Origin: Myxococcales bacterium
Lineage (GTDB): Bacteria > Myxococcota_A > Polyangia > Haliangiales > Haliangiaceae
DNA: 21,649 bases
Direction: 5' to 3'
Assembly: GCA_016706545.1 (NCBI GenBank)
Contig: JADJJK010000031.1
Location: 1 to 21,649, forward strand
The notes under the pieces are model-generated. The model saw only the letters and a list, made by a program, of their open reading frames with translations. It was not told where the DNA came from and made no database searches. Positions within the stretch are counted from its first letter, which is position 1; each line of letters opens with the position of its first letter. Shown one piece after another: positions 2,265 through 21,649 of the stretch. The position numbers and the translations under genes were made by a program.

Positions 2265-2390
2265 GGCGGGAATCTACTCGATCATCGGCCGATCTCGATC
2301 CACCGCAGGCCGCGGCGCGCACCGGACGCACTTTGCTGGTCCCGTCACCTGCTGGACGAGGACTCTCGCGCTACAACACCTGCACCGAAC

Positions 2391-2406
2391 TGGCCCACGT
2401 GGGCCA
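2391..2406. promoter_or_regulatory. Perfect 16-bp palindrome TGGCCCACGTGGGCCA (CACGTG core) 21 nt upstream of the sodB ATG; candidate operator
   Basis: The sequence is self-complementary over all 16 positions. It sits immediately 5' of the GGAG ribosome-binding site (about 2414-2417), in the expected -10/+1/5'UTR zone of sodB and inside the sodB/EVE divergent region. Confidence 0.45.
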
Positions 2407-2426
2407 CCACCTTGGAGCAAGCAATC

Positions 2427-3020
<594 letters not shown>

Positions 3021-3040: not shown

Positions 3041-4030
3041 CTACAGGGCCTGCGCCTCGTGCAGCACCACCAGCTCCCAGCCGCGCGCGGTGCGGCGGAA
3101 CACGGCGCCCACGAGCACCGGCGCCGGCTCGCCTTTGGGGGTCATCCGGTTCGCCGTACACGCGACGAACGCCAGCGCGTCGTCGGCGGTGACCACGCTC
3201 ATCGGATCCGAGGTCAGCTCGTAGCGGCGCTCCGCGAGCTGCTTGCCAAGCGCGGCGAGCTTGCGCTTGCCGGACGTGAGCGCGCCGTCGGTGCCGATCG
3301 CCAGGCCGTCCGCTTGCTCGAGCGCGGCGGCGAGCTGCGCGGGAGCGGCCAGCGCGCGCCGGAGCGCGTCCTCTGCCTCGGCTGCGTTCTTGACGCCGCC
3401 GGCGGCCTTGTCGAGCGCCGGCGTCGCGAGCCCGGGGGCGCGGAGCTTCTTCCCTGCCTTCTTGGCCGCGCCAGCGGACACCGGGAACGAGAGCTGCAAC
3501 ACCCCGATGCGCCAGATGCCGTCGTGTCCGTCGAGCAGGGCGGTCGCCCACAGCGGGCGTCGGCTGAGCTGCAGGCGCTCCACGGCGTAGGCAGAGCGTC
3601 CCCCGGGCGCCGCCAGGACCGTGGCTCCGGGACCCGACAGCCGCGGCTTTCTCCTCGCGTCGATGAGCTCGCGCAGCGCCAGCACCGCGTCGGTGCGCGA
3701 GCCATAGGCGTCCGCGGGGCGCGGGCCCAGCACCAGCAAGGACTCGGTCGCCAGGGACAGCACGTCGTCTGAATCGCCGCTTCGCACCGAGCGCAGCGCC
3801 TCCACGAGCACCAGCTTGGTCTCGCGCTCTGCCTGGCCCTGGGGCGCCTTGGCGGTCGCGGCCGGGCCGGCCTTCGCGCCGCAGCCGGCCAGCGGGAGCA
3901 GCGCCAGCGAGATCAGCGCCAGCAGCGCCAGCAGCTCGGCGGTGACGGCTTGTCGACCGCGCGTGGACCGCCGCCGCGCGAGATCCGGCGGCGGCACGAG
4001 GAGCGTGAGGGTGCGGTGCATCGCGCCCAT
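3041..4030 (-). CDS. Predicted lipoprotein with an Ala-rich linker and a C-terminal NTF2/SnoaL-like (DUF4440-type) domain
   Basis: The N-terminus has a hydrophobic signal sequence ending in the lipobox LLPLAGCG. The C-terminal roughly 120 aa (...DALAFVACTANRMTPKGEPAPVLVGAVFRRTARGWELVVLHEAQAL) looks NTF2-like. The exact start is uncertain (ATG at 4030 or 4021). Confidence 0.55.
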   Translation of the reverse strand: MGAMHRTLTLLVPPPDLARRRSTRGRQAVTAELLALLALISLALLPLAGCGAKAGPAATAKAPQGQAERETKLVLVEALRSVRSGDSDDVLSLATESLLVLGPRPADAYGSRTDAVLALRELIDARRKPRLSGPGATVLAAPGGRSAYAVERLQLSRRPLWATALLDGHDGIWRIGVLQLSFPVSAGAAKKAGKKLRAPGLATPALDKAAGGVKNAAEAEDALRRALAAPAQLAAALEQADGLAIGTDGALTSGKRKLAALGKQLAERRYELTSDPMSVVTADDALAFVACTANRMTPKGEPAPVLVGAVFRRTARGWELVVLHEAQAL

Positions 4031-7100: not shown

Positions 7101-8186
7101 GCGCATGACGATGCCGCGCGCCTCGAGCGTGTCGAGGATGTGGCGGCCGCTCTCGGGCTCCAGGGTGATGCGGCGGGCCAGGGCCAGGCCGTCGTACGGA
7201 CCAAAGGGGCCGTCCGCCAGCTCGGCGAGGAGCCGCAGGCCGTTGCGCTGGCTCCCTGCGGCCACGCAGGCGTCGGTGATCCACGAGGCCGCCAGCTCGC
7301 GCGCGCCGCCGCCGCGGGTCAGCGCCTCGAGCGTGGTCACGTTGCGCAGGCCCAGCGCCAGCGCGCTGATCTGGAGGTCGGCGGGCAAGACGCCGTCTCC
7401 GTCCTTGCCGAGATAGGCGATCACCTCATCGACCACCGGCCGCATCGCGCCGGGCGGCGCGCCGGAGGCGATCATCGCCTCGAGCACCGCGCTGGCCTCG
7501 GCGGGCGCAAAGCGGCGGAGCTCGTAGCGGTTGGACGGCGGAAACAACGAGCCGGTGCGCCGCTCGAGCTGCGCCAGCGTGTGCATGCGCTCCGAGGCAC
7601 AGGCAAAGAGGAACCGCGCCCTGCCGCCGGCGCGCCCGGCGACCTTGGCGAACAGATCCGCGAGATCTGCGGTGCCGCGCTCGGTGCGACAGGTTCGATC
7701 GACGTCGTCGATGACGAACACGAACTGCTGGCCGGGGATCGCGTTGGCGACCGCCCGCGCCAGGAACACGGGCGGAGACTCCCCTGGTTGCTGCTGCAGC
7801 CCAAAGGCGCTCATCCCCGCCGCCAGCGAGGCGGAGGGCTCGTCTGGATCGTCGCTGATGAGCGCGACGATGCCTTGATCTCGGAGCTGCGGGATGAGTG
7901 CCGCGCGCAGGAGCGAGGTCTTGCCGACGCCTGGCTCGCCATAGAGCAGGCCAGCGCGAAACACGTCGGTGGTGACGAGCTGGACCAGCTCGTCGCGTTG
8001 TCGCTCTCGGCCCAGCAGCGCCTCACGTTCGGCTTCACCGAAGGCGTCGAGGCCACGCAAGGGCGATACCGTACCTGGATGCGTCGCGATCGCCACGGCG
8101 AGACTATACAGATCCGGCGCCTGAAATGTCGTTGTCGGGGCGGGCGTTTTGCCTGCGGCGGACGCGCGGACAAGGCGCGGGCGCAT
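4194..8186 (-). CDS. Large (1330-aa) multidomain protein: N-terminal AAA+ (AAA_16/STAND-like) P-loop ATPase, one central transmembrane helix, and a C-terminal array of about 850 aa of HEAT (PBS-lyase type) repeats
   Basis: Walker [14 protein letters not shown] and Walker [11 protein letters not shown] predicted TM segment [26 protein letters not shown] lies at about aa 455-480. After it come many approximately 31-aa HEAT_2/PBS-lyase-like repeats (e.g. [69 protein letters not shown]). The frame is long and clean with coding G/C third-position bias. The start codon is embedded in a 13-bp x3 direct repeat. Confidence 0.8.
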
Positions 8187-8219: not shown

Positions 8220-8282
8220 GCCAAGCGGGCTCGACAGCTCGCGGGGCCTGCGATAGACCAAGGAACAACTCGGGGGGCAATC

Positions 8283-9017
8283 GTGGCAGCGTCTGTCTGC
8301 GAAGTTCGAAATCTCACGGTCCAGTACGGCAAGCGCGTCGCGGTGGATGGCCTGGAGCTGGACCTGCACGCCGGCGACGTGACGTTGCTGCTGGGGCCCA
8401 ACGGCGCGGGCAAGTCCACCGCGCTGTCGGCGATCTCGGGCGCGCTGGTGCCCACCAGCGGCACCATCCGCATCGCCGGCTGCGATCTCGCCACGGATCC
8501 CCTCCGCGCCAAGGCCAAGCTTGGCTTCGCCGATCAGCCGCCTGCGCTGTACGAGTTCCTGACGGTGGTCGAGCACCTGGAGTTCGTGGCCGCCGCGCGC
8601 AGCGCCGAGCGCGGCGAGGTGGACCGCGTGATGACGCGCCTGCAGCTAACCGGGATCGCGCAGCGGCCGTGCCGCGAGCTGTCGTATGGCATGCGGCAGC
8701 GGGTCGGGCTGGCCGCGGCGCTGGTGGGCGACGTGGCGCTGGTGCTGCTCGACGAGACGCTCAACGGGCTCGATCCGTACGCGGCGCGCAGCGCTCGCGG
8801 CGCGGTGGAGGAGGTCGCGGCGCGCGGCGCGGCGGTGCTCATGTCCACCCACTTGCTCGGCGGCGCAGAGCGGATGTGCCAGCGCGCGATCATCATGGAC
8901 GGCGGGCGGGTGGTCGCCGACAAGAGCGGCGAGGAGCTGGCCACGCTCGTCGCTGGCGGGGCCGGAGCGCTGGAGGAGCTGTACGTCTCGGTGGTGCCGG
9001 ACCGAGGTCCGACGTGA
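8283..9017 (+). CDS. ABC transporter ATP-binding protein
   Basis: Proposed GTG start at 8283, preceded by GGGGGG about 5 nt upstream. It has Walker A GPNGAGKST, the ABC signature LSYGMRQR, Walker B LVLLDETLNGLD and an H-loop STHLL. It is divergent from the AAA-HEAT gene across only about 96 bp. Confidence 0.85.
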   Translation: MAASVCEVRNLTVQYGKRVAVDGLELDLHAGDVTLLLGPNGAGKSTALSAISGALVPTSGTIRIAGCDLATDPLRAKAKLGFADQPPALYEFLTVVEHLEFVAAARSAERGEVDRVMTRLQLTGIAQRPCRELSYGMRQRVGLAAALVGDVALVLLDETLNGLDPYAARSARGAVEEVAARGAAVLMSTHLLGGAERMCQRAIIMDGGRVVADKSGEELATLVAGGAGALEELYVSVVPDRGPT

Positions 9018-10261
9018 TCGACGCGGCCAAGCTCCGTCACGTGCAGCGAGAGGTCGGGCGGCGCAGCGGCGGCCGCCGGCGGACGTGGCTCGCGATGCTG
9101 GTCACCGGCGCGGCGGCGGCCGCCTGGGTGGCCACCGCGCCTGATGGCTCCGCGGCCAGCACGCGCTGGCTCTGGACCGCGGTGGCGCTGTACGCGGTCG
9201 CGATGTTGCGGGTGCCGTTCGTGCTGTTCTGGCGCGCCGACGCGGCGCTGCTCGCCAGGCTGCCCATCGAGGGCCGGCCGCTGTGGGGCGCGGCGCAGTG
9301 GGCAACTGGCGAGCTGGCCGCTCAGGCGCTGGCCGCCAGCTCGCTGGCCGCGCTGCCGCTGGCGGTGCTCGCGGGGCCTGACGCTGTCGCGGTGCTCGGC
9401 CGGCACGCGGCGCTGGCGGTGGCGCTGGCGTTCGCCGCGGCGGCGCTGGTCCCTGCGGTCGCGGTCGCCGCCGGGGCGCTGGTGGTCTCTGGCAAGGCCG
9501 ATCAGCTCCTGGCCGGGCTCGGCGGAGAGGTGAAGGCGCCTCCGACCGCCTGGCTGGGGGTGCTCCCAGGGCTGGCCTCGGCCGTGGCGGTGCTCCTGGC
9601 CATCGACGTCGGCGGCTGGCTGCGCGGCGGGCACGCCGAGGTCGGCGACGCCGTCTTGCTCCTGGCCGGGATGAGCGCCGCCTCCGTGGTGGCCGCGCTG
9701 CTGGCCCGCGCCGCGGCGGACCGGGTCATGCCGGCCATGCTGCGCGACGTCTCGGCGCTGGATCGGCAGCAGCTCGCGACCATCGAGCTGACCGCGGCGC
9801 CCGCCACCCTGCGCGCGCTGGGGCGACAGTTGACGCCGGGCGCGCGGCTGCTACTGGACAAGCACGCGCGGCTGCTGGCGCGACGTCACCCGATGTCCGC
9901 GGTGCTGGGCGCGGTGGCGTTTGCGATCCTGGCGGTCAGCGCGCTGGCGTCGTCGCACGCCGCCGTGCTGCAGGTGACCACGCTGGCGGTGACGTTTGCA
10001 TACGCCATGGTATTGCGCGGCCGCATGGCGCAGCCGCCGGTGGAGCTGCCGAGGCTGCGCGACAGCCTGCCGCTGACGCCAGGTGACGCGCAGGCCGCGG
10101 CGCGCACGTATGTGCTGTGGTGGTGGGGATGGTTCGCGCTGCTGCCAGGGGCGCTGGTCCTGGCGCGCACGGCGCAGCTCTGGCAAGTGGCGCCGGCGCT
10201 GGCGGCCGGGACGCTGCTGCTGGTCCTTGGCGGCGGCGGTGGCCGCGCGACCGCGCGCTGA
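9014..10261 (+). CDS. Polytopic membrane protein, probable ABC-2-type permease partner
   Basis: The GTG at 9014 overlaps the TGA of the ABC ATPase (GTGA), which indicates coupling. The roughly 415-aa product is very hydrophobic and Ala/Leu-rich, with at least 6 predicted TM helices. The exact start is uncertain; an alternative ATG (MLVTGAAAA...) lies about 30 codons downstream. Confidence 0.6.
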   Translation: MIDAAKLRHVQREVGRRSGGRRRTWLAMLVTGAAAAAWVATAPDGSAASTRWLWTAVALYAVAMLRVPFVLFWRADAALLARLPIEGRPLWGAAQWATGELAAQALAASSLAALPLAVLAGPDAVAVLGRHAALAVALAFAAAALVPAVAVAAGALVVSGKADQLLAGLGGEVKAPPTAWLGVLPGLASAVAVLLAIDVGGWLRGGHAEVGDAVLLLAGMSAASVVAALLARAAADRVMPAMLRDVSALDRQQLATIELTAAPATLRALGRQLTPGARLLLDKHARLLARRHPMSAVLGAVAFAILAVSALASSHAAVLQVTTLAVTFAYAMVLRGRMAQPPVELPRLRDSLPLTPGDAQAAARTYVLWWWGWFALLPGALVLARTAQLWQVAPALAAGTLLLVLGGGGGRATAR

Positions 10262-10353
10262 CCGCGAGGCGCTGACGGCCGACGCTGCATCGTGTCAGCG
10301 GCCTTGCGCTGGGGCGCGCCTGCCATGCTGCATTTTTTCGCTGCGCCCGAGGC

Positions 10354-10464
10354 CGCGCATGGGCGCCGCCCGGGGCCGCGCATGGGCGCCGCTGCGCAGC
10401 CGAGGCTTTGCGGTGACGAGATCGCGACTTGGACGCAGCGGTCGCAGTGGTCGCAGCGGTCCTT
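10354..10464. repeat. Two short direct-repeat motifs in the spacer: CCGCGCATGGGCGCCGC x2 (about 10354-10393) and GCAGYGGTC x3 (about 10438-10464)
   Basis: Read directly: ccgcgcatgggcgccgcccggggccgcgcatgggcgccgc and gcagcggtcgcagtggtcgcagcggtc. Confidence 0.7.
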
Positions 10465-10565
10465 GGGACCTGTGGTCATCAGGTTTTCACGTTCCCGGCT
10501 CCGCTTTGGATGCGCGCGGCGGCAAGAGCCTGTACGCTCAGCGGGCTCATGGGCGAGCCGCGGTC

Positions 10566-10678
10566 GAACTCATCGGCGAACTCATCGGCGAGTTCATCGG
10601 CGAACTCATCGGCGAGTTCAGCGGCGAGCGGCGAGTTCATCGGCGAACTCATCCGCGAGTTCATCGGCGAACTCATCG
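10566..10678. repeat. Tandem 12-mer array alternating GAACTCATCGGC and GAGTTCATCGGC, about 9 copies (a 24-mer unit)
   Basis: cgaactcatcggcgaactcatcggcgagttcatcggcgaactcatcggcgagttca...gagttcatcggcgaactcatccgcgagttcatcggcgaactcatcg. It would encode ELIGEFIG in one frame, or RTHRRV in the giant-ORF frame. Confidence 0.85.
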
Positions 10679-10756
10679 ATAGGTCCTGCGATAGAGCCTT
10701 TGCCAGACTCCGCCACGGACGCCAGGGACGACGGCGGACCGCGTGCCGGCTCGTCA

Positions 10757-10822
10757 TCTCCATCGCTGCCGTCGCTGCCGTCGTCGCCGTCGTCGCCGTC
10801 GCCATCGTCGCCGTCGCCATCG
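10757..10822. repeat. Tandem GCCGTCGYC / CCGTCG microsatellite, about 10 units
   Basis: ccatcgctgccgtcgctgccgtcgtcgccgtcgtcgccgtcgccatcgtcgccgtcgccatcg. It would encode SPSLPSLPSSPSSPSPSSPSPS in the giant-ORF frame. It lies immediately upstream of the proposed ATG at 10847. Confidence 0.8.
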
Positions 10823-10846
10823 CGCGGCGGCAAGATCGTCGAGGAG

Positions 10847-13800
10847 ATGCTCGAGGTGGCGCGCGCCGAGGCTGACGCGGCGATGTCTGCGGCGGAGCGC
10901 GAGGTCGCTGGCGACCTGGCGGCGCGGGCGGTGCTCCTTGCCTGGGACAGCCAAAGCCTGGTGCCGGCGAGCATCGCGAGCCGCGCCGGTGACGGGACCG
11001 GGCCGCACGAGCCGTCGGGGACAGGCGCCGGGGGGCTCGCCTCCGATCCAGCGTGGGCAGAGCGGACGCTGTTCTTGCCGGCCACCCACCCGCTGAGCGC
11101 GCGGCTCCAGCTCGCCGCGGCGCTGGCTGGGTCGGTGGGGCGCGCGGACGCCGATTCGAGCTTGCTGTGGGCCGAGCGCGCCGTTCACCACGCCGATCCG
11201 CAACACCGCGGTGATCTTGCGCTCTGGCTGGCCGAAGCCTGGCAGCTCGGTGGCGGACGCCCGCCGGCCACCGTGCTCGAGCTGGTGGTGGCTGGCGAGT
11301 CGCCGCACGCGCGGGCGCTGGCGCAGCTCGTGGGGTTCGCGCCGCGGCGCGTGGCGGAGCTGTCCGCGGCGGCGGTGGGGCGGCACGGCGGCGGCGACGA
11401 GCGCGCCGAGGCGGCCAGCCTGCTCCTCGACTCCGGCGCGGACCCGCGTGAGGCCGCCGCGCTGTGCGCGCGCGTCGCCAGCAACGCGCTGGAGGTCCGG
11501 CTGCGGTGCCTGGAGCTCGCCATCGAGGCCAGGCTGCGCGGCGACAGCCAGGAGGACCTGACGCAGCTCTGGCTCGAGCGCGCCGCGCTGGTGGGGGACC
11601 TGTCCAATGGGGCGCTCGATGCGGCGGTGTCTCGTGTGCTGGCGGTGGAGAGCGATGATTCCGGACGCGATTCCGCGCGCGATTCCAGCCGGGACCTTGG
11701 CCCGCGCCGCACCCCGTCCGAGCCCAACCTCCGCGTCCTGGCTCGGATCCCCAGAGCGAGCAAGAGCCCGATGGCTGGCGACGACGCCGAGCCCGTCGCT
11801 GGCCACGCCGCGGGAGCTGCCGCGCCGCGACCGCCGCGTCACGCGCAGCTCACCCCGCTGGCGGAGTCTCCGGCGGTGCGAGATCCGTACTTCGGTCCGC
11901 TGTACCTGCGCATGCGCAGCCTGACCTACGCCATCGCCGCCGGCGATCGCGCGGCGGCCACCGAGCTCCGGCGCCGGCTCGCGTTCGAGTCGCCCTGTCC
12001 GGTGGTGGCGGCGTGCCACGCGGCGCGCGCGGCCACCAGCCTCGAGGTCGCGATGGCCAGCGCGCCGGAGGCGGCGGTCGTCGACGCGCGCGACACCCGC
12101 GGCTCCGCGCTGGAGCTGGCGGAGGTGGCCTGCGAGCGCGTGCCGAGCCCGACCTTGCTGGCGTTGCTCGACCGCGCCTGGCTGCGCCGATCGCCCATCC
12201 CCGCGCAGGCGGTGGAGCGGCTGTCGCAGCGCGGCGGCGTGGCGCTGCGCTGGGCCGCTCACCTGGCGGAGCGCCGGCTCCTCGATCTGCCGCGCGCGAC
12301 GCGGCTGTGGTCGCAGGCCGCCGAGCTGGCGACGGCGGACAGCGGCTTCGCGCTGGATCACCTGGCGTCGTGTCACCGGCGGCTGGGCGACCACGAGGCG
12401 CTCGCCAAGATCTACGTCGCGCTGGCTGGACGCGAGGACACGCCCCGCGGGGTGGCGGTGTGGCGGTGCGCCGCCGCGGCGCTGGCCCTGTCGCGCGACG
12501 GGGAGGGCGCCCGGAGCGCGCTGGAGCGCGCCGTGGAAGCTGCGCCGCGTGACCCGGTCAGCCGGATCGGCCTCTTGCGGGTGGTCCTGGCCGCGTCGGA
12601 GTGGAGCACCGCGGTCAAGCTGCTGGAGGACATGATCCCCAAGCTGGCGGTGCGCGCGCTGCGGCAGCGATACTCGCGCGAGCGCGCGTGCTTGCTCGAC
12701 GTACACCTGCAGCGCTCCGCGGAAGCCGAGGACGCCTTCGAGCAGATCCTGGCCGAAGACCCGCTGGACGCCGACACGCTGGTGGCGCTGGGCGAGCTGT
12801 ACGAGCGGCGGCAAAAGCCGATGCTCGCCATCGCCGCGCGGCGACGCGCCTGCGATCTCTTGCCCCCGGCAGCCAGGGTTTCCCAGCTCGTGATCGTGGC
12901 GGAGCTGTGCCGCAACCACTCCGAGCTGGAAGACGGCCTCTCCGCGCTGGAGGAGGCGCAGCGGCTGGATCCCGAGAACTCGGACGTCCACCGCATGCTG
13001 GCCGACCTCTACGAGCAGCTCGGCAAGCCCGAGTACGCGGTGGTCGCGCTGCGCATGGAGCTGGCGCGCAACCCGGAGCCACCCCGGCGCATGGTCGCGC
13101 AGCTTCGGCTCGCCGGGCTGCTGGCCCGCCTCGGCACCGAGCCTGAGTCCGTGGTCGCGTTGTATCTCGATGTGTTGTCGATGGATCCCAGCAGCAGCGA
13201 GGCGCTCGCCGGCATCCAGGCGCCGGCGCGTGCGCTGGGTTGGTGGGACGCGCTGACGCGCGCCTTCCGCGCGGCGCCGCCCACTGCCGACAACCTGGTC
13301 GTGCTGGCCGACGCGCTGGAGAAGATGTCGAGCTTCGCGGAGCTAGCGCGGGTGCGCCGAGCGCAGCTCGAGGCCGCCACCTTGCCGGCGGAGCGCGCTC
13401 GCCGCGCCTCGGAGCTGGCGGTGCTGCACGAGACGCGGCTCGGTGATCCCGACGCCGCGATCGCGGCGCTGCGGCAGGCGGTGGGGGTGGCGCCCGAGCT
13501 CGAGCGCACAGGCCTTCTCCAGGACCTCGAGCAGCTCCTGGAACGCCATGGGCGCTGGCCGGAGCTGGCCGAGCTGTTCTCGAGCGAGCTGGCGCGGTGC
13601 GAGCCGGCGCAAGAGGAGGAGCGCGTGCGGCTGCATCTGCGTCGCGCGCGGGTCTGCGCCGAGCGGACCGGAGATCTCGCCAGCGCGGTGGCCGCCTGCG
13701 AGGCCGCGCTCGAGATCTTGCCGGAGCAGGTGGAGACGCAGGAGCTCCTCGCCGCGGTGTACGAGCGGGCGGGGCGGCGGCGAGACGCGATCCGGATCGT

Positions 13801-16800
13801 GCAGGGCCGCGCGCAGGCCGCCAGCGGCAGCGAGCGCGCCGGGCTCCTGGCGCGGGCGGCGCGCCTCCACCTGGCAGAGGACGACCTGGCCGGTGGCCTG
13901 GCGGCGTACCAGGCCGCCATCGAGGCCGACCCAGGCGATCGCGAGACCTTCACCGCCTACGAGCGCGCGTGCTACGCGCACAAGCGCTGGCCGGACGTGC
14001 TGCGCCTGTATGACACCGCCATCGCGCACGTCGAGGCGGGCGCGCACCGCGCCTACCGCCTGTTTGACCTGTACTCGCGCAAGGCGCAGGCGCAGGCGTC
14101 GTACCTGGGAGACCCAGACGGCGCCGCCGAGTCGCTGTGCCGGCTCATCGTCCAGGAGAACAACCCGGACGCATCCCTCAAGCTGATGGAGGAGCTCTGC
14201 GCCTCACGCGGCGACTACGCCGCGCTGGTGGACGCGCTCGAGCGCCGGGCGCAGGCCGCGCGAGATGGCGCGCGCAGCCTGGACGCGCTCCGCCGCGCGG
14301 TGACGGCCGCCGAGACGTACCTGGATGATCCCGCGCGCGTGGCGAAGCTCCGCGCGCAGGTGGTGCGGCTCGATCCTTCCGATGAGGCCAGCGCCAGCGC
14401 GCTCGAGGCCTTCTATCGTGAGCGCAAGGAGGTGACGGCGCTCATCTCGTTTCTGCACACCCAGATCGAGGCCAGCCGAGACTCCGCGCGCACGGTCGAG
14501 CTCCTGCAGCGGGTGGCCGAGGTCAGCGAGGACGACGCGCGGGACGTCGAGGGCGCCATCTTGCACTACACCAAGATCCTCGAGATCGAGCCCCGACACG
14601 TGGAGTCGCTGGAGGCGCTCAGCCGCATCTACGAGTCCACCGAGCGCTGGACGGAGCTCATCGAGATCACCCGCCGGCAGATCAAGGGCATGGCGGACCG
14701 CAGCAGCAAGGCGCTCTTGTACTTCCGCTGCGGCTCGGTGATGGAGGCCAAGTTCGGACGCGAGGAAGACGCGATCCGGTACTACCAGGCGGCGATCACG
14801 GTCTCGACGGCGTGCATGCCCGCCGTCCACGGCCTGCGCGATCTGTACCGTCGGCGACAGGAGTGGGCGCGCGTCGTCGAGACGCTGGAGCTCGAGCTCA
14901 AGCTCTGGCAGGACGACAAGGAGCGCGCCGGCGTGCTGGCCCAGATCGGGCAGGTCTACGCGGAGCGGATCGGCGACGGTCGCAGCGCGCGGCAGTACTT
15001 TCACGAGGCGCTGGCGGTGGACCCCGAGTGCGTCCCCGCCAACTGGGCGCTGTTCGAGGATTACTTCGCCGCTGGAAACTGGGAGCAGGCCCGGCCGCTG
15101 GCCAGCTCGCTGACCCAGCGGGCCATGCACGATGGCGATCCGGCGACGCGCAGCGAGTTCTATCGCAAGCGAGCGATGGTCTCGCTGCACACCGGCGATC
15201 CGCGAGACGCCGCCGAGAGCTTCGTGGTGGCGCTGGAGATCCGGCCCACCAACCTGGACGCGCTGGAGGCGCTCGGGAGGGTGGCGCGGAACCACCCCAC
15301 GGTCTACGACTTCGAGAGCACGTACCGCGAGCTGGAGCGGATCTATCGCCGGCGAGACGACGCGGCGCCGCTGCTGGCGCGCGTGTGGATGGGGTTGGCG
15401 ACGCTGGCGGAGCGCGCCGGCGATCTCGATCACGCCGCGGATCTGTCCAGCGCGGCCACCTCGCTGGCGCCCACGGATCTCATCGTGCTGATGGCGGTGG
15501 TGGACTTCCACTGCGACATGCGGCGCTGGGCCGCGGCGGTGGACGCCATCCTGGCGTTCTTGCCGCAGGCAAACCCGGCGGACGTCACCGCGGCGCGGCT
15601 GCGGCTAGCAGAGCTCCACGCCGATGGCCAGCGCGACGCCTCGCGCGCGATCGCCGTGCTCGGGGACGTCGTTCGCGATGAGCCCACCTGCCACGAGGCG
15701 CACTACCTGCTCGCCCAGCAGCACTACCTGCACGGTCGCCTCGCGGAGGCGCGCGCCGCCATGGACGCCGCGCTGGAGCTGGCGGAGTCACTGCCCGCGG
15801 CGACCGCGGACGCCGCGCTGGCGCGCTACCACTACTACCGCGGTCGCGTCCTCGGCGCGCAGGGCGATGGCGCCGCCGCCGAGGCGCAGTACCGCCTCGC
15901 GTGTGACCATGACCGTGGCTATGCGCCGCCGGCCTTGCTGCTGGCGCGGCGCGCCGCCGAGGTGGGGGACCATCGCCAGGCCGAGGCCCTGCTGATCGAA
16001 GCCGCGCGCGCCGCCATCGAGCAGCGCGGGGTGGTGGGGGCGGTGCCGATGCAGCGCGGCCTGGCCCGCATCCTCCTGGCCAATGGAGACCGGGTCGCGG
16101 CCATCGAGGCGTACCGCGGCATCCTCGCGGTCACGCCGGACAACGCGATCGACCGCGTCGCGCTGGCCGAGATCTACGCGGTCGATGATCTGCCGCGCGC
16201 CATCGCCGAGCTGCGCAAGGTGATCGATCGCGACCTTCGTCACGCGCCAGCGTACCGGCTCCTGGCCTGGTACTACGAGCAGCAAGGGGAGCTCGAGCGC
16301 GCGGCGCGGGTGCTGGCCGTGCTGGAGCTGATGGGCTTTGCAGAGGACAGCGACCTGGAGACGGCGCAGCGGCTGCGCGCCGCGCGGGTGGCGCCGCCGA
16401 TCGTGTCCTCGCTGGGCTCCGAGCAACGTCATCACCTGCTGGCGACGCGGGCCACTCGCGACGTCCTGGGCGAGGTCTGGTCCGTGTTCGCGCCGGCGAT
16501 CTCGGCGCTGTTCCCGCCGTTTGCGCTGGGCGAGGACCTGGTGCCCATGGAGGCCTACGGGGACGCCTCGCTGTGCGAGGACTACGCCGAGGTCGCGCGG
16601 ATCTTCGAGACCTCCGCGGAGGTGTTCCTGGGAGATCGGGTGCCGGGGATGACGATGGTGGTGACCCATCCACGACCGGCGATCGTCATCGACCGGGCGC
16701 TGGCGCAAGAGAGCCGCGCCGCCCGGCGCTTCCTCTTTGGCTGGTCGCTCGACGCGATCCGCGGCTCCTACGCGGTGCTGCTGTCCCTCGGCGCCTCGCA

Positions 16801-17185
16801 GTGCAGCGAGCTGAGCGCCATCCTGCGCGAGCTGTTCGCCAGCGAAGGCGACCGCTCGGGCGTGGCCGCGGAGCTGGTGCGCGTGGGAGGGGCCTCGGGG
16901 ACCAAGGTCCTCGACAAGTACGCCGGCCGGATGCGTGAGCTGGACGTCGAGGGGTGGATGGATGGCATGCTGGCCGGCGCCAAGCGCAGCGGTCTTTTGG
17001 CCTGCGACGAGTTCGAGGCCGCGATCTGGATGATCGCGCGCCTCTCCGGGGAGCGCCTCGCCGGGCACGACGACACCGCGGCGCTCGGTGCGGTGCTAGG
17101 CGGCGCGGACCTGGTACGGTACTACCTGAGCGATGACTACCAACGCCTGCGACAGAGCTTGACGGCCGCGAAGGCGGAGTCATGA
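10847..17185 (+). CDS. Giant (about 2110-aa) tetratricopeptide (TPR) repeat protein with a non-TPR C-terminal domain of about 280 aa
   Basis: The continuous frame has strong G/C third-position bias. There are dozens of TPR-like units (e.g. ADTLVALGELYERRQKPMLAIAARRRACDLLP; VHRMLADLYEQLGKPEYAVVALRMELARNPE; VESLEALSRIYESTERWTELIEITRRQIK). The ATG at 10847 is the first start after the repeat-nest spacer, although the long ORF formally opens at 10292 inside non-coding-looking repeats. The C-terminal roughly 280 aa (ELMGFAEDSD...LTAAKAES) is not TPR. Confidence 0.75.
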   Translation: MLEVARAEADAAMSAAEREVAGDLAARAVLLAWDSQSLVPASIASRAGDGTGPHEPSGTGAGGLASDPAWAERTLFLPATHPLSARLQLAAALAGSVGRADADSSLLWAERAVHHADPQHRGDLALWLAEAWQLGGGRPPATVLELVVAGESPHARALAQLVGFAPRRVAELSAAAVGRHGGGDERAEAASLLLDSGADPREAAALCARVASNALEVRLRCLELAIEARLRGDSQEDLTQLWLERAALVGDLSNGALDAAVSRVLAVESDDSGRDSARDSSRDLGPRRTPSEPNLRVLARIPRASKSPMAGDDAEPVAGHAAGAAAPRPPRHAQLTPLAESPAVRDPYFGPLYLRMRSLTYAIAAGDRAAATELRRRLAFESPCPVVAACHAARAATSLEVAMASAPEAAVVDARDTRGSALELAEVACERVPSPTLLALLDRAWLRRSPIPAQAVERLSQRGGVALRWAAHLAERRLLDLPRATRLWSQAAELATADSGFALDHLASCHRRLGDHEALAKIYVALAGREDTPRGVAVWRCAAAALALSRDGEGARSALERAVEAAPRDPVSRIGLLRVVLAASEWSTAVKLLEDMIPKLAVRALRQRYSRERACLLDVHLQRSAEAEDAFEQILAEDPLDADTLVALGELYERRQKPMLAIAARRRACDLLPPAARVSQLVIVAELCRNHSELEDGLSALEEAQRLDPENSDVHRMLADLYEQLGKPEYAVVALRMELARNPEPPRRMVAQLRLAGLLARLGTEPESVVALYLDVLSMDPSSSEALAGIQAPARALGWWDALTRAFRAAPPTADNLVVLADALEKMSSFAELARVRRAQLEAATLPAERARRASELAVLHETRLGDPDAAIAALRQAVGVAPELERTGLLQDLEQLLERHGRWPELAELFSSELARCEPAQEEERVRLHLRRARVCAERTGDLASAVAACEAALEILPEQVETQELLAAVYERAGRRRDAIRIVQGRAQAASGSERAGLLARAARLHLAEDDLAGGLAAYQAAIEADPGDRETFTAYERACYAHKRWPDVLRLYDTAIAHVEAGAHRAYRLFDLYSRKAQAQASYLGDPDGAAESLCRLIVQENNPDASLKLMEELCASRGDYAALVDALERRAQAARDGARSLDALRRAVTAAETYLDDPARVAKLRAQVVRLDPSDEASASALEAFYRERKEVTALISFLHTQIEASRDSARTVELLQRVAEVSEDDARDVEGAILHYTKILEIEPRHVESLEALSRIYESTERWTELIEITRRQIKGMADRSSKALLYFRCGSVMEAKFGREEDAIRYYQAAITVSTACMPAVHGLRDLYRRRQEWARVVETLELELKLWQDDKERAGVLAQIGQVYAERIGDGRSARQYFHEALAVDPECVPANWALFEDYFAAGNWEQARPLASSLTQRAMHDGDPATRSEFYRKRAMVSLHTGDPRDAAESFVVALEIRPTNLDALEALGRVARNHPTVYDFESTYRELERIYRRRDDAAPLLARVWMGLATLAERAGDLDHAADLSSAATSLAPTDLIVLMAVVDFHCDMRRWAAAVDAILAFLPQANPADVTAARLRLAELHADGQRDASRAIAVLGDVVRDEPTCHEAHYLLAQQHYLHGRLAEARAAMDAALELAESLPAATADAALARYHYYRGRVLGAQGDGAAAEAQYRLACDHDRGYAPPALLLARRAAEVGDHRQAEALLIEAARAAIEQRGVVGAVPMQRGLARILLANGDRVAAIEAYRGILAVTPDNAIDRVALAEIYAVDDLPRAIAELRKVIDRDLRHAPAYRLLAWYYEQQGELERAARVLAVLELMGFAEDSDLETAQRLRAARVAPPIVSSLGSEQRHHLLATRATRDVLGEVWSVFAPAISALFPPFALGEDLVPMEAYGDASLCEDYAEVARIFETSAEVFLGDRVPGMTMVVTHPRPAIVIDRALAQESRAARRFLFGWSLDAIRGSYAVLLSLGASQCSELSAILRELFASEGDRSGVAAELVRVGGASGTKVLDKYAGRMRELDVEGWMDGMLAGAKRSGLLACDEFEAAIWMIARLSGERLAGHDDTAALGAVLGGADLVRYYLSDDYQRLRQSLTAAKAES

Positions 17186-17591
17186 GCGAGCGGGGGCGGG
17201 CGCGGGCCGCAGGCGGCGCTGACTCGATGGGACAGAAAGAGCGGAGGAGTCGAGCAAACCGTATGGCAGCTCGCGTCCCTTCGCCCGCTCAAATGCCTGG
17301 TCGCAACCGTGCGTTGCACTGCATTGATGAGCCAGATCTCCTCATGCCGCGGCGCGCCACAGGCGGTTCGAGCGCTCCGTTGCTCCCGAGGTCCTCGTGT
17401 AAAGTGCTTGAATATAAAACGATTGAGCACCCTGCCGACCTCCACCTTCGGGAGTTGGCAATTTCGCAATCACCCAACCAGAAATCCACCGTTGCCATGG
17501 ATCATGGCCCGATCATGACGCTATGCTTGACCGGCATGGTTAGACCCAGGCGATGTAATCGAGGCCACGAGGATTACGTCATGGTGAGACG
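17186..17591 (+). promoter_or_regulatory. An approximately 400-bp intergenic island of markedly lower GC upstream of the STAS gene; probable promoter/leader region
   Basis: It contains stretches such as gtgcttgaatataaaacgattgagcac and ttggcaatttcgcaatcacccaaccagaaatcc that are atypical for this genome. Overlapping ORFs have non-coding codon usage. Palindromic bits CCATGGATCATGG and TCATGA lie near the start. Confidence 0.4.
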
Positions 17592-18554
17592 GTGAGTCAC
17601 AAATTCAACGCGACCATTCAGCATCGAGACGACGTCAGCTACGTAAAGCTGGCGGGCGTCATCGACGAGGACAATGAGCTCGCCAACATCGTAGAGCGGA
17701 TTCCTCGAGGGACAGCCGTGATCGATCTCGGAGAGATCGAGCGGATCAACTCTTGTGGAGTTCGCGACTGGGTGAACTGGCTCAGTCGGCTCGAGGCCCA
17801 AGGTACGCGAGCGATCCTGGTCGAGTGTTCGCCGGCGATCGTCGCCCAGATAAACCTCGTCAACAACTTCACCGGCACGGGCGTGGTGAAGAGCTTCTTC
17901 GTTCCCTATTTCTGCCCCGAGTGCGACGAAGAGAAGGTCTTGCTGGTCGAGACCTCGGACATGGGGCCTCCGCCGCACGAGCCGCCGATGTGCCGGTGCG
18001 ATGAGTGCGATCTGGTCATGGACTTCGATGACATGCCAGACTCGTACTTTGCGTTCCTCTCCAACTCGAGGAAGTACGCAGAGGCGGAGAAGGTCAGCGG
18101 CGCCATCCGCGACATGGGCGGGCCCTCCGAGCCTTCGGACAAGGCGCGGGTTCGCTCGCGCGTCAGCTCGCCAGCCATCGCGCCCTCGCCCAAGGGCGCT
18201 CCGCCCGGTCTGCCGGGGCGGCCGAGCGCACCTAACCGGCTGTCGGCTCCACCTTCCTACGGTGCCCCAGGCGCCGCGGGCGCGCGTCCAGGTCTTCCAA
18301 GCTTTCCGCCCCGTGGCCCCTCGAACCTCGGCGGGCCGAACCCGATGTCAAATGGCGGCGGCCTGGGCCCGCTGCCACCGTCGGGGCCGATGTCGTCAGC
18401 GCCAGCGACCGCTGGCATGGCGCCGCTCGGCATGGGCATGGGGCCGCTGCAAGGCGCCGCCCCGGCCCGGCGCGGCAACGCCACGATCTACACGCTGGTG
18501 GGGGTCCTGGTGGTCGCGATCGGCGTGCTCGGCTACCTGCTGCTGACGCGCTGA
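17592..18554 (+). CDS. Tail-anchored STAS-domain protein (anti-sigma-factor-antagonist-like) with an internal 4-Cys zinc ribbon and a Pro/Gly-rich linker
   Basis: GTG start. The N-terminus is STAS/SpoIIAA-like ([16 protein letters not shown]...[23 protein letters not shown]), with a conserved Ser at the phospho-site position (INSCG). Then comes CPECDEE...(about 25 aa)...CRCDECD (C-x2-C ... C-x-C-x2-C), an approximately 130-aa P/G/S/A low-complexity segment, and a C-terminal TM helix [20 protein letters not shown]. The upstream region is unusually AT-rich. Confidence 0.75.
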
Positions 18555-18682
18555 GCTGGCTTTGGCCGGCGCCCGCCGCGCTTGGCCTGGCGGGTGTCGA
18601 GGCGCGCCGACGCCGGCGGGTGTCGAGGCGCAGCGACGAAGCGTTCCTGGGAGAGCGGCCTGGGAGAGCGGCCTGGGAGCGG

Positions 18683-19234
18683 CTAGACGATCAGCCCCTT
18701 CTTGTAGTCCAGCAGCTCCTTCTGCGTCTTGAGCAGGAGCTGGTTAGTCTCCAGCAGCTCCTTGGTGCGTATGCGGACCTGGTTGGCGAGCCGCTGTCGC
18801 TCCTGGGCCTCGCGCTCCAGGATGTCCTGGTACTTCATCTGCACGTCCGCCTCGTCGGTGACGTTGCGCTGGATCTCGAGCGCGCCCACCGCGACCCCGT
18901 GCTCATCCGTGATGGGCACGGCCGACAAGATGAAGCGCATGGTCGCGCCCTCTGGGCCTCCCAGCACGGCGCCCGAGATCTCGTCGAGCCGGACGTGCCG
19001 GTTGTCGGTCCAGCACTGCTGCGCGATGCACTTCGTGGCGCAGATGTTGAATTCGATCACCTCGTAGCAGCGCCGGCCTCTGAGGCCCCTGGCGACCTGC
19101 CGCGGCATCATGGCGAAGAACGCACGATTGAAATCGACGATCCGCCGCTCGGAGTCGACCACGAAGTAGCTATCCACGATCACGCTCGCGACCCGCTTGA
19201 ACTCCGCAAGGAACTTATCGAGCGCAAGCGACAT
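18683..19234 (-). CDS. Stand-alone PAS-domain sensor protein with a 4-Cys cluster and a C-terminal coiled coil
   Basis: PAS-like core [20 protein letters not shown]...[26 protein letters not shown]...[29 protein letters not shown]. Four Cys are spaced C-x9-C-x3-C-x4-C. The C-terminus is heptad-like ([44 protein letters not shown]). It is divergent from the PP2C gene. Confidence 0.7.
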
Positions 19235-19633
19235 GTGGTCAACGTATCATGGCCTGTCTCGCTCGCGCTGGTGGGCGGAAGCTCGCGCCAGCGAGACCCG
19301 CTGAACGACTGCCGGATCAAGGCCAGCGGGCCCTGGTCCGGATCAAACCGGTTTCAACTACCAGGGTCGCCGAAACGTGTCTTCCAATACCCTACTTGTC
19401 CATCGTTGAAACCACAGCCGAGCCAGCCAGAGCAACCTGGCCGCGCTCTCGAGGATCCTCGTAGGCTATTGAAATTTCTAATTGGTTCCCAGATCGCCGG
19501 GGGCCGCCAGGTCTCTGGTGCGGGGGGCTTGGCCCAGCGGAAGGCGACCTGCTCGCGCTAGATCACCTTGGTAAGCGCAAATGCTCCAGGAGTTTGACCC
19601 ACCGCGGCCGGCGTCATACCATCCGCTTGCAAC
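19235..19633. promoter_or_regulatory. An approximately 400-bp divergent promoter region between the PAS sensor (-) and PP2C phosphatase (+) genes, carrying several perfect palindromes
   Basis: 12-bp palindrome CGAGGATCCTCG (about 19450-19461); 10-bp AAACCGGTTT (about 19345-19354); 8-bp GAAATTTC (19471-19478); direct repeat CCGGATCAA x2 (about 19309 and 19337, read by eye). GC is locally reduced, and the overlapping ORF 19249..19464 has non-coding codon usage. Confidence 0.4.
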
Positions 19634-21334
19634 ATGGCTAAAAGAGGGGGCCTGAGCGTATCGCTCAAGATGATCGCTACCACCACGCTGCTCGTGGTCG
19701 GTATTATCGTGGGCTTTGGCGTCCTGAACGTCATGAACATCCGCAAGGTGTTCGATGACACGACGGCCGCGCAGATCAAGGTGTTCCGGGATGGTCGGGA
19801 GCTGCTGGGTGACTTTGGAACCCCTGCGTTTGCTCGCGCCGTGGAGCCGATGCTCATCAACCGGCAAGACGCGGAGATGATCGCGCTGCTCGACGGCGCC
19901 GTCCGTCAGGACACGCGAGATCTCGGCGGCAAGCGCGACTACGGCCTCAAGCTGGGCGTCATCCTCGACGGCAACCAGGGGCTGGTCGCGCACTGCTTCG
20001 AAGATGCAGGCAGCGCCGGCGTGCGCTGCAAGCCCGGCTCGCACGAGCCGATCTCCGACACGCTCGGCAAGCTCACGTCGGATGCGTGGAAGGCCGCGCT
20101 GGCGGCGTGGACCGCCGCGTCCGCCGGCAAGGGCGACGTGCTGGTCCGCTTCGATCAGAGCGATGGTGGCTCCAAGTATCGCTTCTTCGCGTTCCCGGTG
20201 TTCGTCAACGGCCCCGCCTCGGCGGCTGGCGCCGCAGCGACAGAGCGGCCCGACGCTCGCCAGGGGTACGTGGTCCTGGGCTATGACCTCGCGCCCATCG
20301 ACACCTTCGCGGGGCTCGCCGAGGAGCGGAAGTCGCAAGCCTCGACCGAGGCCGTGGTCTACACCGGCGCGGTCGGCGTGCTGTTCATCTTGATTGGCAC
20401 GCTCCTGGCGATCTTCCAGGGCCTGTCCATCTCGCGCCCCATCAAGCAGCTCGCCAAGCGCGCAGACCAGATCTCGCGCGGCGACCTGGCGGCGCGAGTC
20501 GAGGTCAAGTCGAGCGACGAGATCGGCGTGCTGGGAGAGAACTTCAACTACATGGCGGATCAGATCGTGGTCCTCCTGCAGCAGACCGCGGAGAAGGCGC
20601 GCATCGAGCAGGAGCTCGAGGTGGCGCGCACCATCCAGGAGACCCTGGTCCCGCCGCCGGACATCGTCGACAAGGGGACGCTGCGCTTCTGCGGGTACTT
20701 CCAGCCTGCGTCGCAGACCGGCGGAGACTGGTGGACCTGGCACGATCTCACCGGCGGCAAGGTGCTGCTCGTGATCGGCGACGTCACCGGCCACGGCGTG
20801 CCGTCCGCGATGATCACCGCGGCGGCCAAGGCCGCGTGTGACGTGGCGCGCGCCGTCCACAACGACGACGTCACGGTGAGCCGCCTGCTCGAGATCATGA
20901 ACTACGCGATCTTCGAGAGCGCCAAGCGCAAGTTCGTCATGACCTGCTTTGCCTCCATCATCGACACCCGGCGGCGCACCATCACGTACGCCAACGCCGG
21001 GCACAACTTCCCGTATCTGCTGCGTGGCAACGAGTTCGCCACCATGATGATCCGCGGCAACCGCCTGGGCGATGTCCGCGAGTCGCAGTACGAGGCCAAG
21101 ACCATCGAGCTGTCGCCGGGCGACGTGCTCATCTGGTACACGGACGGCATCGTCGAGTGCGAGAACCGCAGCGGGGAGGAGTGGGGCGAGAAGCGGTTCC
21201 GGGCGGCGGTCAAGCGAGCGGCGAGCCTCGACTCCGCGCAGATGCGCGACGCCATCGTCGCCGATTCTCGAGATTTCTATTCCGATGTTCCGCGCAAGGA
21301 CGACATCACCATGGTTGTCGGGAGGATCTATTGA
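19634..21334 (+). CDS. Membrane sensor Ser/Thr phosphatase: TM1 - periplasmic domain (about 230 aa) - TM2 - HAMP - PP2C/SpoIIE (RsbU-like) phosphatase
   Basis: TM helices MIATTTLLVVGIIVGFGVLNV and AVVYTGAVGVLFILIGTLLAIF. HAMP linker ISRPIKQLAKRADQISRGDLAARVEV...IGVLGENFNYMADQI. PP2C motifs ...FQPASQTGGDWWTW...LLVIGDVTGHGVPSAMITA...ITYANAGHNFPYLL...VLIWYTDGIVE. Coordinates are taken from the ORF track. Confidence 0.9.
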   Translation: MAKRGGLSVSLKMIATTTLLVVGIIVGFGVLNVMNIRKVFDDTTAAQIKVFRDGRELLGDFGTPAFARAVEPMLINRQDAEMIALLDGAVRQDTRDLGGKRDYGLKLGVILDGNQGLVAHCFEDAGSAGVRCKPGSHEPISDTLGKLTSDAWKAALAAWTAASAGKGDVLVRFDQSDGGSKYRFFAFPVFVNGPASAAGAAATERPDARQGYVVLGYDLAPIDTFAGLAEERKSQASTEAVVYTGAVGVLFILIGTLLAIFQGLSISRPIKQLAKRADQISRGDLAARVEVKSSDEIGVLGENFNYMADQIVVLLQQTAEKARIEQELEVARTIQETLVPPPDIVDKGTLRFCGYFQPASQTGGDWWTWHDLTGGKVLLVIGDVTGHGVPSAMITAAAKAACDVARAVHNDDVTVSRLLEIMNYAIFESAKRKFVMTCFASIIDTRRRTITYANAGHNFPYLLRGNEFATMMIRGNRLGDVRESQYEAKTIELSPGDVLIWYTDGIVECENRSGEEWGEKRFRAAVKRAASLDSAQMRDAIVADSRDFYSDVPRKDDITMVVGRIY

Positions 21335-21649
21335 TGTACGAGCTGTCCACGCGACGATTCCACGCGCGGAAGAGCAGTTGGCGCGTGCTGGTGCTGGCCT
21401 GGGTGGCCCTGTGTGGGCTGGCATCCACGGTCCTGGCACAAGCAGAAGACGACTTGCGCGAAGGCGACCGGTACTTCGAGGAGGGCGAGTGGCGCAAGGC
21501 GTCATCTGCGTATGACCGCGCCATCCGGCAGTATCCTCGGCAGGTCGCCGCGGAGGCCTATGCCAAGCGGGCCACCATCTACATCATCCTCAAGGACTAC
21601 AAGAGCGGCCTCGCGTTCGTCAACGACACCGCCAAGACGGTCCACCCGA
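21334..21649 (+). CDS. Secreted or periplasmic TPR-repeat protein, N-terminal part; 3' end lies outside the window
   Basis: Its ATG overlaps the TGA of the PP2C gene (TGATG). The N-terminus MYELSTRRFHARKSSWRVLVLAWVALCGLASTVLAQA looks like a signal peptide. It is followed by a TPR-like sequence (GDRYFEEGEWRKASSAYDRAIRQYPRQVAAEAYAKRATIYIILKDYKSGLAF). The frame stays open to the window end, and the start may be off by 1 nt. Confidence 0.5.
   Translation, partial: MYELSTRRFHARKSSWRVLVLAWVALCGLASTVLAQAEDDLREGDRYFEEGEWRKASSAYDRAIRQYPRQVAAEAYAKRATIYIILKDYKSGLAFVNDTAKTVHP

Follow-up and report, generated by a model that had tools for sequence, protein, structure and literature searches.

Partner switching has been known mainly as a way of freeing or sequestering sigma factors through small, soluble STAS proteins. 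In the Chlamydia Rsb system, a periplasm-sensing RsbU acts on two RsbV paralogs that carry a Ser loop of the Y-M-S-S-A-G type, and RsbW is the kinase (PMC11619594). A STAS Ser is also phosphorylated in SypE/SypA of Vibrio fischeri, HsbR/HsbA (PA3346/PA3347) of Pseudomonas, BtrU/V/W of Bordetella and RbaV/W, where the target is either not a sigma factor or unknown; SypA, RbaV and BtrV belong to partner switches without a sigma factor whose outputs are unknown, and SypE and PA3346 combine a kinase or phosphatase with a receiver domain (PMC8256260). Among myxobacteria, a single group of SpoIIE-like phosphatases has been reported as conserved (sce8427/MXAN_4562/Adeh_0917), and it carries a HAMP domain (PMC2887360). 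Here we describe a locus on a 21,649-nucleotide contig of a Myxococcales bacterium of the Haliangiaceae (assembly GCA_016706545.1, contig JADJJK010000031.1, positions 1 to 21,649, all of it referred to below as the window), in which a gene for a tail-anchored STAS protein with a zinc ribbon follows the gene of a giant TPR protein and precedes genes for a PAS protein, a transmembrane PP2C phosphatase and a secreted TPR protein. We put at about even the chances that this locus is a reduced version of a signalling cluster conserved in Kofleriaceae/Polyangia-type myxobacteria, one that acts as a partner-switching-like phospho-switch without a sigma factor.

Gene calls in the window combined third-codon-position GC content (GC3) and open reading frame (ORF) analysis with Pfam. 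The window proteins were mapped onto a neighbourhood sample of 80 species-representative genome loci, all from Kofleriaceae/Haliangiales-type metagenome-assembled genomes; the denominators 71, 73, 59, 49 and 31 used below are subsets of these 80 fetched species genomes. An earlier note, made from the window sequence alone, had read the STAS, PAS, PP2C and secreted TPR genes as one membrane-tethered partner-switching module. That reading is borne out in part. The frames it gave for these four genes hold, with a coding-type GC3 of 0.80-0.91. The whole interpretation given here rests on comparative genomics and predicted structures: folds, motifs, topology features, conservation of the family and gene linkage are shown, whereas phosphorylation of Ser54, action of the phosphatase on the STAS protein, the choice of binding partner and the part played by the PAS protein are inferred.

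The STAS-zinc-ribbon protein and its family

The STAS gene (17592-18554, + strand) encodes a protein of 320 residues. Its sequence matches were Pfam STAS PF01740 (E = 0.007, 16.5 bits; cut-off 22.6), PF13466 (16 bits; cut-off 29.2) and TIGR00377 (E = 1e-4, 22.1 bits; cut-off 53.45). Because the STAS assignment at the sequence level was weak, an alignment of 34 diverse homologs was built and the structure of residues 1-170 was predicted. The predicted fold is a STAS alpha/beta fold, closest to those of anti-sigma antagonists. None of the solved chains in the structure library searched aligned beyond ~106 of the 170 residues of the model, and the zinc-ribbon extension is thus without structural precedent in that library. 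At the sequence level, the best PDB match was the STAS domain of prestin. In the profile-to-PDB alignment, R-I-N-S54-C-G falls on yMSSaG of 4hyl, yMDSaG of TM1442 and fIDSvG of prestin, which places Ser54 (codon 17751-17753) at the putative canonical phospho-Ser position. The earlier note had proposed a phosphorylatable Ser and had named its loss on alignment as a possible failing; the Ser aligns with those of 4hyl and TM1442. In 157 domains taken from cluster representatives, Ser54 is kept in 123 of the 145 that have a residue at this position.

The STAS-zinc-ribbon domain spans residues 1-164 (17592-18083), with the ribbon at about residues 101-147 (17892-18032). Among family representatives, C108, C111, C136 and C139 are each ~90% kept and C79 ~95%. 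C134 is not conserved, so that the ligand set reads CPEC...C-x2-C; the C4 ribbon previously proposed from CPECDEE...CRCDEC stands in these four Cys, and C134 drops out as a ligand. The domain is followed by a low-complexity Pro/Gly/Ala/Ser linker (residues 165-295, 18084-18476; 21% Pro, 18% Gly, 15% Ala and 12% Ser), whose length and sequence vary among orthologs, and by a C-terminal membrane helix, which together with the stop codon occupies 18480-18554. This tail is the only hydrophobic segment of the protein (residues ~297-319; Kyte-Doolittle 19-residue mean of 2.4); it is preceded by a basic RRGN sequence and followed by only two residues. The ~130-residue Pro/Gly-rich spacer and membrane anchor of the earlier note were thus recovered. 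More than 100 full-length homologs keep the start codon, the zinc ribbon and the membrane helix, which rules out a frame or start artefact for ribbon and helix. Among Kofleriaceae orthologs that are only ~60% identical overall, residues 16-158 hardly vary, indicating an unusually strong constraint on the domain; within the cluster, conservation is highest in the STAS N-domain (~82% identity) and the PAS protein (~77%). Within the gene, GC content is ~60% in the domain part (17592-18100) and ~76% in the linker part (18100-18554).

The combination of STAS and zinc ribbon had been thought unusual. With the N-terminal 170 residues as query, 3,611 clusters at 50% identity were found with E <= 1e-3, and 2,048 with E <= 1e-10; the fusion is not a rarity and defines a family of its own. 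No Pfam or NCBIfam model scored above threshold for this family and none covers STAS and ribbon as one unit. In JGI, the proteins carry the label "anti-anti-sigma regulatory factor"; the matches of the window proteins point to Kofleriaceae (Myxococcota) and include a 100% identical JGI metagenome protein. A literature search found no paper on a STAS-zinc-ribbon or tail-anchored STAS protein. Family members occur as stand-alone proteins of 160-180 residues, as tandem duplications (P0246, P0257, P0266), as a fusion to a Hanks-type Ser/Thr kinase (P0191) and as tail-anchored proteins with variable linkers; the tail helix is conserved in the orthologs of the window protein and in the distant members P0142, P0176, P0236, P0250 and P0270. 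A tandem member is encoded directly after a ParA/MinD-like ATPase gene (L093:9086-10966), and the tail-anchored paralog P0236 directly after a 1,244-residue Pkinase-STAND gene (L088:6143-10747). P0250, P0266 and P0364 lie in unrelated contexts, with distant members beside ClpX/Era or a ParA-like ATPase, and the contigs of P0176 and P0223 were too short to give context. The gene context described below therefore does not generalise to the whole family.

Conserved neighbours of the STAS gene

In 70 of 71 genomes, the gene immediately upstream of STAS is that of the giant TPR protein (10292-17185 in the window, + strand, an ORF of 2,297 residues). This gene, and not that of the phosphatase, is the invariant neighbour of the STAS gene, and it falls outside the interval that the earlier note considered (17592-21649). 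The giant TPR protein is cytoplasmic. Its C-terminal ~300 residues are not TPR but a domain of M48/gluzincin-like fold; HExxH is not present in this domain and no His or Cys is invariant, so that it is presumably non-catalytic. The 5' part of the ORF (10292-10830) had no homology in relatives, and similarity to L001 begins near 10826. The real start is therefore probably at ~10830, the preceding stretch being a repeat-rich spacer. Tandem DNA repeats are found in this 5' part at 10565-10678 (period 12/24) and 10763-10823 (period 6/9).

Between the giant TPR and STAS genes lies a 406-bp spacer (17186-17591), the AT-richest stretch of the window. The lowest-GC 150-bp windows, at 17376-17650, have 52-53% GC against 71% overall and lie directly upstream of the STAS start, as the earlier note had described. 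The spacer presumably carries the STAS gene's own promoter; a consensus scan of it gave no convincing sigma-70-type promoter on the + strand. An ORF overlapping the spacer (17182-17595) was rejected, having no coding GC3 pattern. Structured RNAs gave no Rfam match at gathering thresholds in the spacer or elsewhere in the window, and no terminator-like sites were found at 17100-19700.

On annotated contigs of relatives, a gene for a protein of 277-307 residues with HATPase_c_2/HATPase_c matches is divergent from the giant TPR gene. It was found in 45 of the 49 genomes whose DNA reaches far enough upstream, and also in the Polyangia locus L090. The protein has a REC-like N-terminus with an invariant Asp, followed by a conserved N-box (DELLMNAL), D-x-x-G and GxGLG, features that fit an RsbW/SpoIIAB-type GHKL protein. 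At the corresponding place in the window, L001 and L003, ABC transporter genes abut the giant TPR gene. A hidden Markov model built from 17 RsbW-like homologs was searched against the six-frame ORFs of at least 50 residues of the window, L001, L002 and L003, and the best E value was 1.5; a hidden RsbW-like gene in the window was thereby ruled out. An ORF at 8534-9634 (- strand) was likewise rejected as an RsbW-like kinase, since it showed no similarity and the region holds a + strand pair of ABC ATPase and membrane-protein genes. Coding-type ORFs of the window scanned against Pfam gave no sigma-factor domain, and the annotated flanks of the orthologous loci L081, L082, L086, L087, L089 and L090 held no sigma factor. 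The earlier note was thus right that the window has neither an RsbW-type kinase nor a sigma factor. In L081, a small AraC-type regulator gene (114 residues, L081:2277-2621) lies between the ABC genes and the RsbW-like gene and could be a transcriptional output or a regulator of the cluster; no such gene was seen in the window.

The PAS gene (18683-19234, - strand) encodes a 183-residue protein that is predicted to be cytoplasmic, with matches to PAS_9 (E = 1.4e-5) and PAS_4 (E = 8e-5) and a conserved C-terminal coiled coil. C56, C65, C69 and C74 are invariant in 45 orthologs (C-x8-C-x3-C-x4-C) and map to the helical region of the PAS core, and 96% of the orthologs have H80; the earlier description of a four-Cys PAS sensor is upheld in these features. 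Comparison by sequence with solved structures revealed no similarity. The Fe-S PAS domain of NreB has the spacing C-x2-C-x11-C-x2-C, unlike that of the PAS protein. Over 176 residues, the protein is 36% identical (E = 6e-24) to the N-terminus of a PAS-HisKA-HATPase_c kinase in L086 (L086:18098-19399), whose four Cys are spaced C-x8-C-x3-C-x2-C. The PAS protein is thus a paralog of the PAS sensor and signalling helix of the L086 kinase, and looks like a kinase-less copy of them.

The PP2C gene (19634-21334, + strand) encodes a 566-residue protein with matches to HAMP (E = 4e-16) and SpoIIE (PF07228, E = 5.5e-40). The order of its parts is a first transmembrane segment, a periplasmic domain of ~200 residues, a second transmembrane segment, HAMP and a SpoIIE/RsbU-type PP2C domain, the hydrophobic segments being at residues 6-39 and 236-268, in agreement with the transmembrane sensor phosphatase first described. 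GGDWW, GDVTGHG and YTDGIVE are invariant or nearly so in 32 orthologs, and NAGHN and DDIT are mostly conserved, so by its motifs the phosphatase looks catalytically competent. The periplasmic domain is poorly conserved and diverges fast. The TGA of the PP2C gene and the ATG of the secreted TPR gene at 21334 overlap by one base (TGATG), as noted before. Only the 5' end of the TPR gene (21334-21649, + strand; TPR_2, E = 5e-6) lies within the window, whose edge cuts it, and the encoded N-terminus is signal-peptide-like. Full-length orthologs of 812-871 residues follow the PP2C gene in L081, L086, L087 and L089.

In relatives, the order is PP2C, the secreted TPR protein of ~850 residues, and a protein of ~295 residues with weak similarity to periplasmic binding proteins (Phosphonate-bd/NMT1). 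Next in ten fetched loci is a gene for a soluble STAS-zinc-ribbon paralog of 148-170 residues that keeps RINSCG and all four Cys; these loci are eight of the 80 species genomes (L066, L070-L072, L075, L077-L079), L086 and the distant L089. In relatives, the operon also runs on into a histidine kinase with a response regulator; in L086, the paralog is followed by the PAS-HisKA-HATPase_c kinase and then a response regulator. In a metagenome scan that used the short paralog as seed, 33 of 47 loci had the binding-protein-like gene immediately upstream of it. L001-L003, the relatives closest to the window, retain the binding-protein-like gene and lack the short paralog, which indicates that the window lineage carries a reduced set. 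The soluble paralog within the PP2C operon is the best contextual evidence that the phosphatase may act on the STAS-zinc-ribbon family.

The idea that the four genes form one module did not hold. Only 15 of 73 genomes have the PAS gene <=1.5 kb downstream of the STAS gene, and 32 of 59 have it <=9 kb downstream; the PP2C gene was divergently adjacent to the PAS gene in 27 of 31. Unrelated genes lie between STAS and PAS, for example OsmC, glycogen phosphorylase and hydrolase genes in L081, and the block is sometimes inverted (L026, L040). The PAS/PP2C/TPR block is thus coherent but floating relative to the STAS gene, whose constant neighbour is the giant TPR gene, and its variable distance means that the four genes are not one operon-like module. 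Co-occurrence of STAS and PP2C genes, the absence of which in relatives would have told against the earlier note, was observed also in distant relatives. The array of giant TPR, tail-anchored STAS, PAS on the opposite strand, PP2C, TPR and binding-protein-like genes recurs in L087 (STAS N-domain 61% and PP2C 47% identical to the window) and L089 (67% and 49%), the STAS N-domains of L087, L089 and L086 being 61-81% identical to that of the window. The full array including the terminal short STAS gene was found on eight metagenome contigs, and on twelve metagenome contigs the short paralog is directly divergent from PAS. The array in distant lineages and the paralog in the PP2C operon together suggest a functional link between the phosphatase and the STAS family that goes beyond inherited gene order, and we regard this link as credible.

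A candidate phospho-switch and its alternatives

In the mechanism that we propose, the TM-HAMP-PP2C phosphatase would sense a periplasmic cue through its own periplasmic domain, with help from the co-translated secreted TPR protein and from a binding-protein-like protein that would be encoded just beyond the window. The four-Cys PAS/coiled-coil protein would contribute a cytoplasmic redox or metal input, to which relatives may add a further cytoplasmic input through a histidine kinase and response regulator. The phosphatase would then strip phosphate from Ser54 of the STAS-zinc-ribbon domain, which would hang from its C-terminal membrane anchor by the flexible linker of ~130 residues. With such a tether at the membrane, the phosphorylation state of Ser54 would decide partner capture at the inner membrane. 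The captured partner would be the upstream giant TPR/pseudo-peptidase protein, the RsbW-like ATPase of relatives, or both; in the window's genome, the kinase would have to be encoded elsewhere. A bolder form of the proposal, which we offer tentatively and think rather unlikely to hold as a whole, is that the tail-anchored STAS-zinc-ribbon protein reversibly tethers a 2,300-residue TPR/pseudo-peptidase scaffold to the inner membrane, that the PP2C phosphatase, the RsbW-like kinase and a four-Cys (Fe-S or redox) PAS protein control where the scaffold is placed and not transcription, and that the family represents a large undescribed class of switch domains. In this form, the phospho-switch could also be gated by redox state or metal through the conserved Cys55 beside Ser54, Cys79 and the zinc site.

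Several observations weigh against a partner-switching-like phospho-switch. Every STAS match at the sequence level is below its curated cut-off (PF01740, PF13466, TIGR00377), and the Pfam scores of the RsbW-like protein are just under the gathering threshold (25.3-25.6 bits vs 27.4). The RsbW-like gene is absent from the window, L001 and L003. The same Ser is present in SLC26 STAS domains (prestin), so that Ser54 is neither diagnostic nor proof of phospho-regulation, and 15% of the family is without it. The STAS and PP2C genes of most Kofleriaceae do not form an operon, nor do they sit side by side in the same orientation; no PAS/PP2C genes were found within 9 kb downstream of STAS in 27 of 59 genomes. 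L090 and twelve metagenome loci retain both STAS and PAS, and the DNA fetched for them showed no PP2C gene in between or alongside. Gene order conserved inside a single family may also reflect shared ancestry in part, rather than function.

A first alternative is that the tail-anchored STAS-zinc-ribbon protein is a constitutive membrane adaptor for the giant TPR/pseudo-peptidase protein, with no phospho-regulation. The giant TPR and STAS genes would then make up a two-gene unit, and the PAS/PP2C/TPR block would be an independent envelope-sensing pathway lying nearby by inherited order. The adjacency of the giant TPR and STAS genes in all genomes but one is what an adaptor would predict, as is a PAS/PP2C block found at anything from 0.1 to >10 kb with unrelated genes or inversions; the window has no kinase, a Ser in this loop is common to STAS domains in general, prestin included, and distant family members sit beside ClpX/Era or a ParA-like ATPase. 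However, many relatives have a second STAS-zinc-ribbon paralog within the PP2C operon, the RsbW-like ATPase gene sits beside the giant TPR-STAS pair in nearly all genomes where it could be sought, and the array stays complete in lineages whose STAS N-domain has no more than 61-67% identity. We regard a constitutive adaptor as the main rival reading, though an improbable one.

Less probable again, and in our view distinctly doubtful, is that eukaryote-like (Hanks) Ser/Thr kinases, and not an RsbW-type kinase, use the STAS-zinc-ribbon domain as a substrate or docking module, with the PP2C phosphatase opposing those Hanks kinases. This would explain how the window lineage copes without an RsbW-like gene, and it would suit the kinase fusion P0191, the position of paralog P0236 after its Pkinase-STAND gene and a Pkinase gene directly after the STAS ortholog in L082; STAS-kinase fusions have also been noted in Sorangium (PMC2887360). 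The window, however, holds no Hanks kinase, such a neighbour occurs in few loci only vs 45 of 49 for the RsbW-like gene, and myxobacteria have so many of these kinases (PMC2887360) that chance adjacency is likely. A transport-accessory STAS protein of the MlaB or SLC26 type, regulating the upstream ABC transporter (8259-9017, 9014-10261), is very improbable: prestin is the best sequence-level PDB match and the transporter genes are conserved upstream in 30-36 loci, but they lie ~8.5 kb off, past the giant TPR gene, most relatives also have AraC-type and RsbW-like genes between, and no SLC26 domain is present.

Other genes of the window, and comparison with described systems

The ABC ATPase gene (8259-9017, + strand; PF00005, E = 1e-28) overlaps the start of a gene for a 415-residue polytopic membrane protein (9014-10261, + strand; no Pfam match), and the pair, found upstream of the cluster in the related loci counted above, was hidden in the mechanical ORF list behind longer non-coding ORFs. 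Further upstream is a gene for an nSTAND1 NTPase of 1,330 residues with C-terminal HEAT repeats (4194-8186, - strand), which is conserved patchily (L001, L003, L007, L048). An anti-phage defence system, suggested by this nearby NTPase, was rejected, as no component had a PADLOC match. A SnoaL-like protein (3041-4030, - strand) and an EVE-domain protein (1629-2264, - strand; E = 1.4e-49) are encoded beyond it. The EVE-domain gene borders a patch of lower GC content at 2001-3000 (62-63% vs 71%), which holds an ORF (2146-2904, + strand) with no family match.

The closest functional analogue of the cluster is the Chlamydia Rsb system. Like it, relatives of the window have two paralogs of the STAS-type protein (here STAS-zinc-ribbon), a transmembrane phosphatase (TM-HAMP-PP2C) and an RsbW-like gene. 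Chlamydial RsbV, in contrast, is a STAS-only protein of ~110 residues and a sigma factor is the target; here the STAS domain has a C4 zinc ribbon, one paralog is tail-anchored, the neighbour is a giant TPR protein, no sigma factor is linked and the window has no kinase. The REC-like N-terminus and invariant Asp of the RsbW-like protein of relatives recall SypE and PA3346. However, SypA, PA3347, BtrV and RbaV are small and soluble and have neither zinc ribbon nor membrane anchor. In those systems the kinase is fused with or adjacent to the phosphatase, whereas here the two are separate genes at variable distance, and none of those systems has a giant TPR partner. The top NCBIfam match of the phosphatase was SiaA (NF038263), at 109.4 bits against a cut-off of 700, so that it is not a SiaA ortholog; unlike SiaA/B/C/D of Pseudomonas aeruginosa, the cluster has no SiaB-type kinase or diguanylate cyclase, and SiaC is a DUF1987 protein, not a STAS-zinc-ribbon protein. 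The giant TPR protein differs from BepA/YfgC, an M48 peptidase with TPR, in its reversed domain order, its ~2,000 residues of TPR, its cytoplasmic location and its lack of HExxH.

The family described here is very large; its STAS domain has acquired a zinc ribbon as an integral part and often comes with a membrane anchor or as a duplicate. Throughout one widespread lineage of myxobacteria, the constant companion of this domain is a giant TPR protein and not a sigma factor, amid a full set of sensor, kinase and phosphatase genes. If the proposed phospho-switch is correct, it would offer a tractable, sigma-independent and membrane-localised partner switch, and a first functional handle on the huge TPR proteins common in myxobacteria. 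A literature search found no functional study on the sce8427/MXAN_4562/Adeh_0917 phosphatases. Compared by description only, the architecture of this group matches that of the window phosphatase, and if the proposed phospho-switch is correct, the STAS-zinc-ribbon family would be a likely substrate class for what may be the conserved HAMP-SpoIIE phosphatase group of myxobacteria (PMC2887360).

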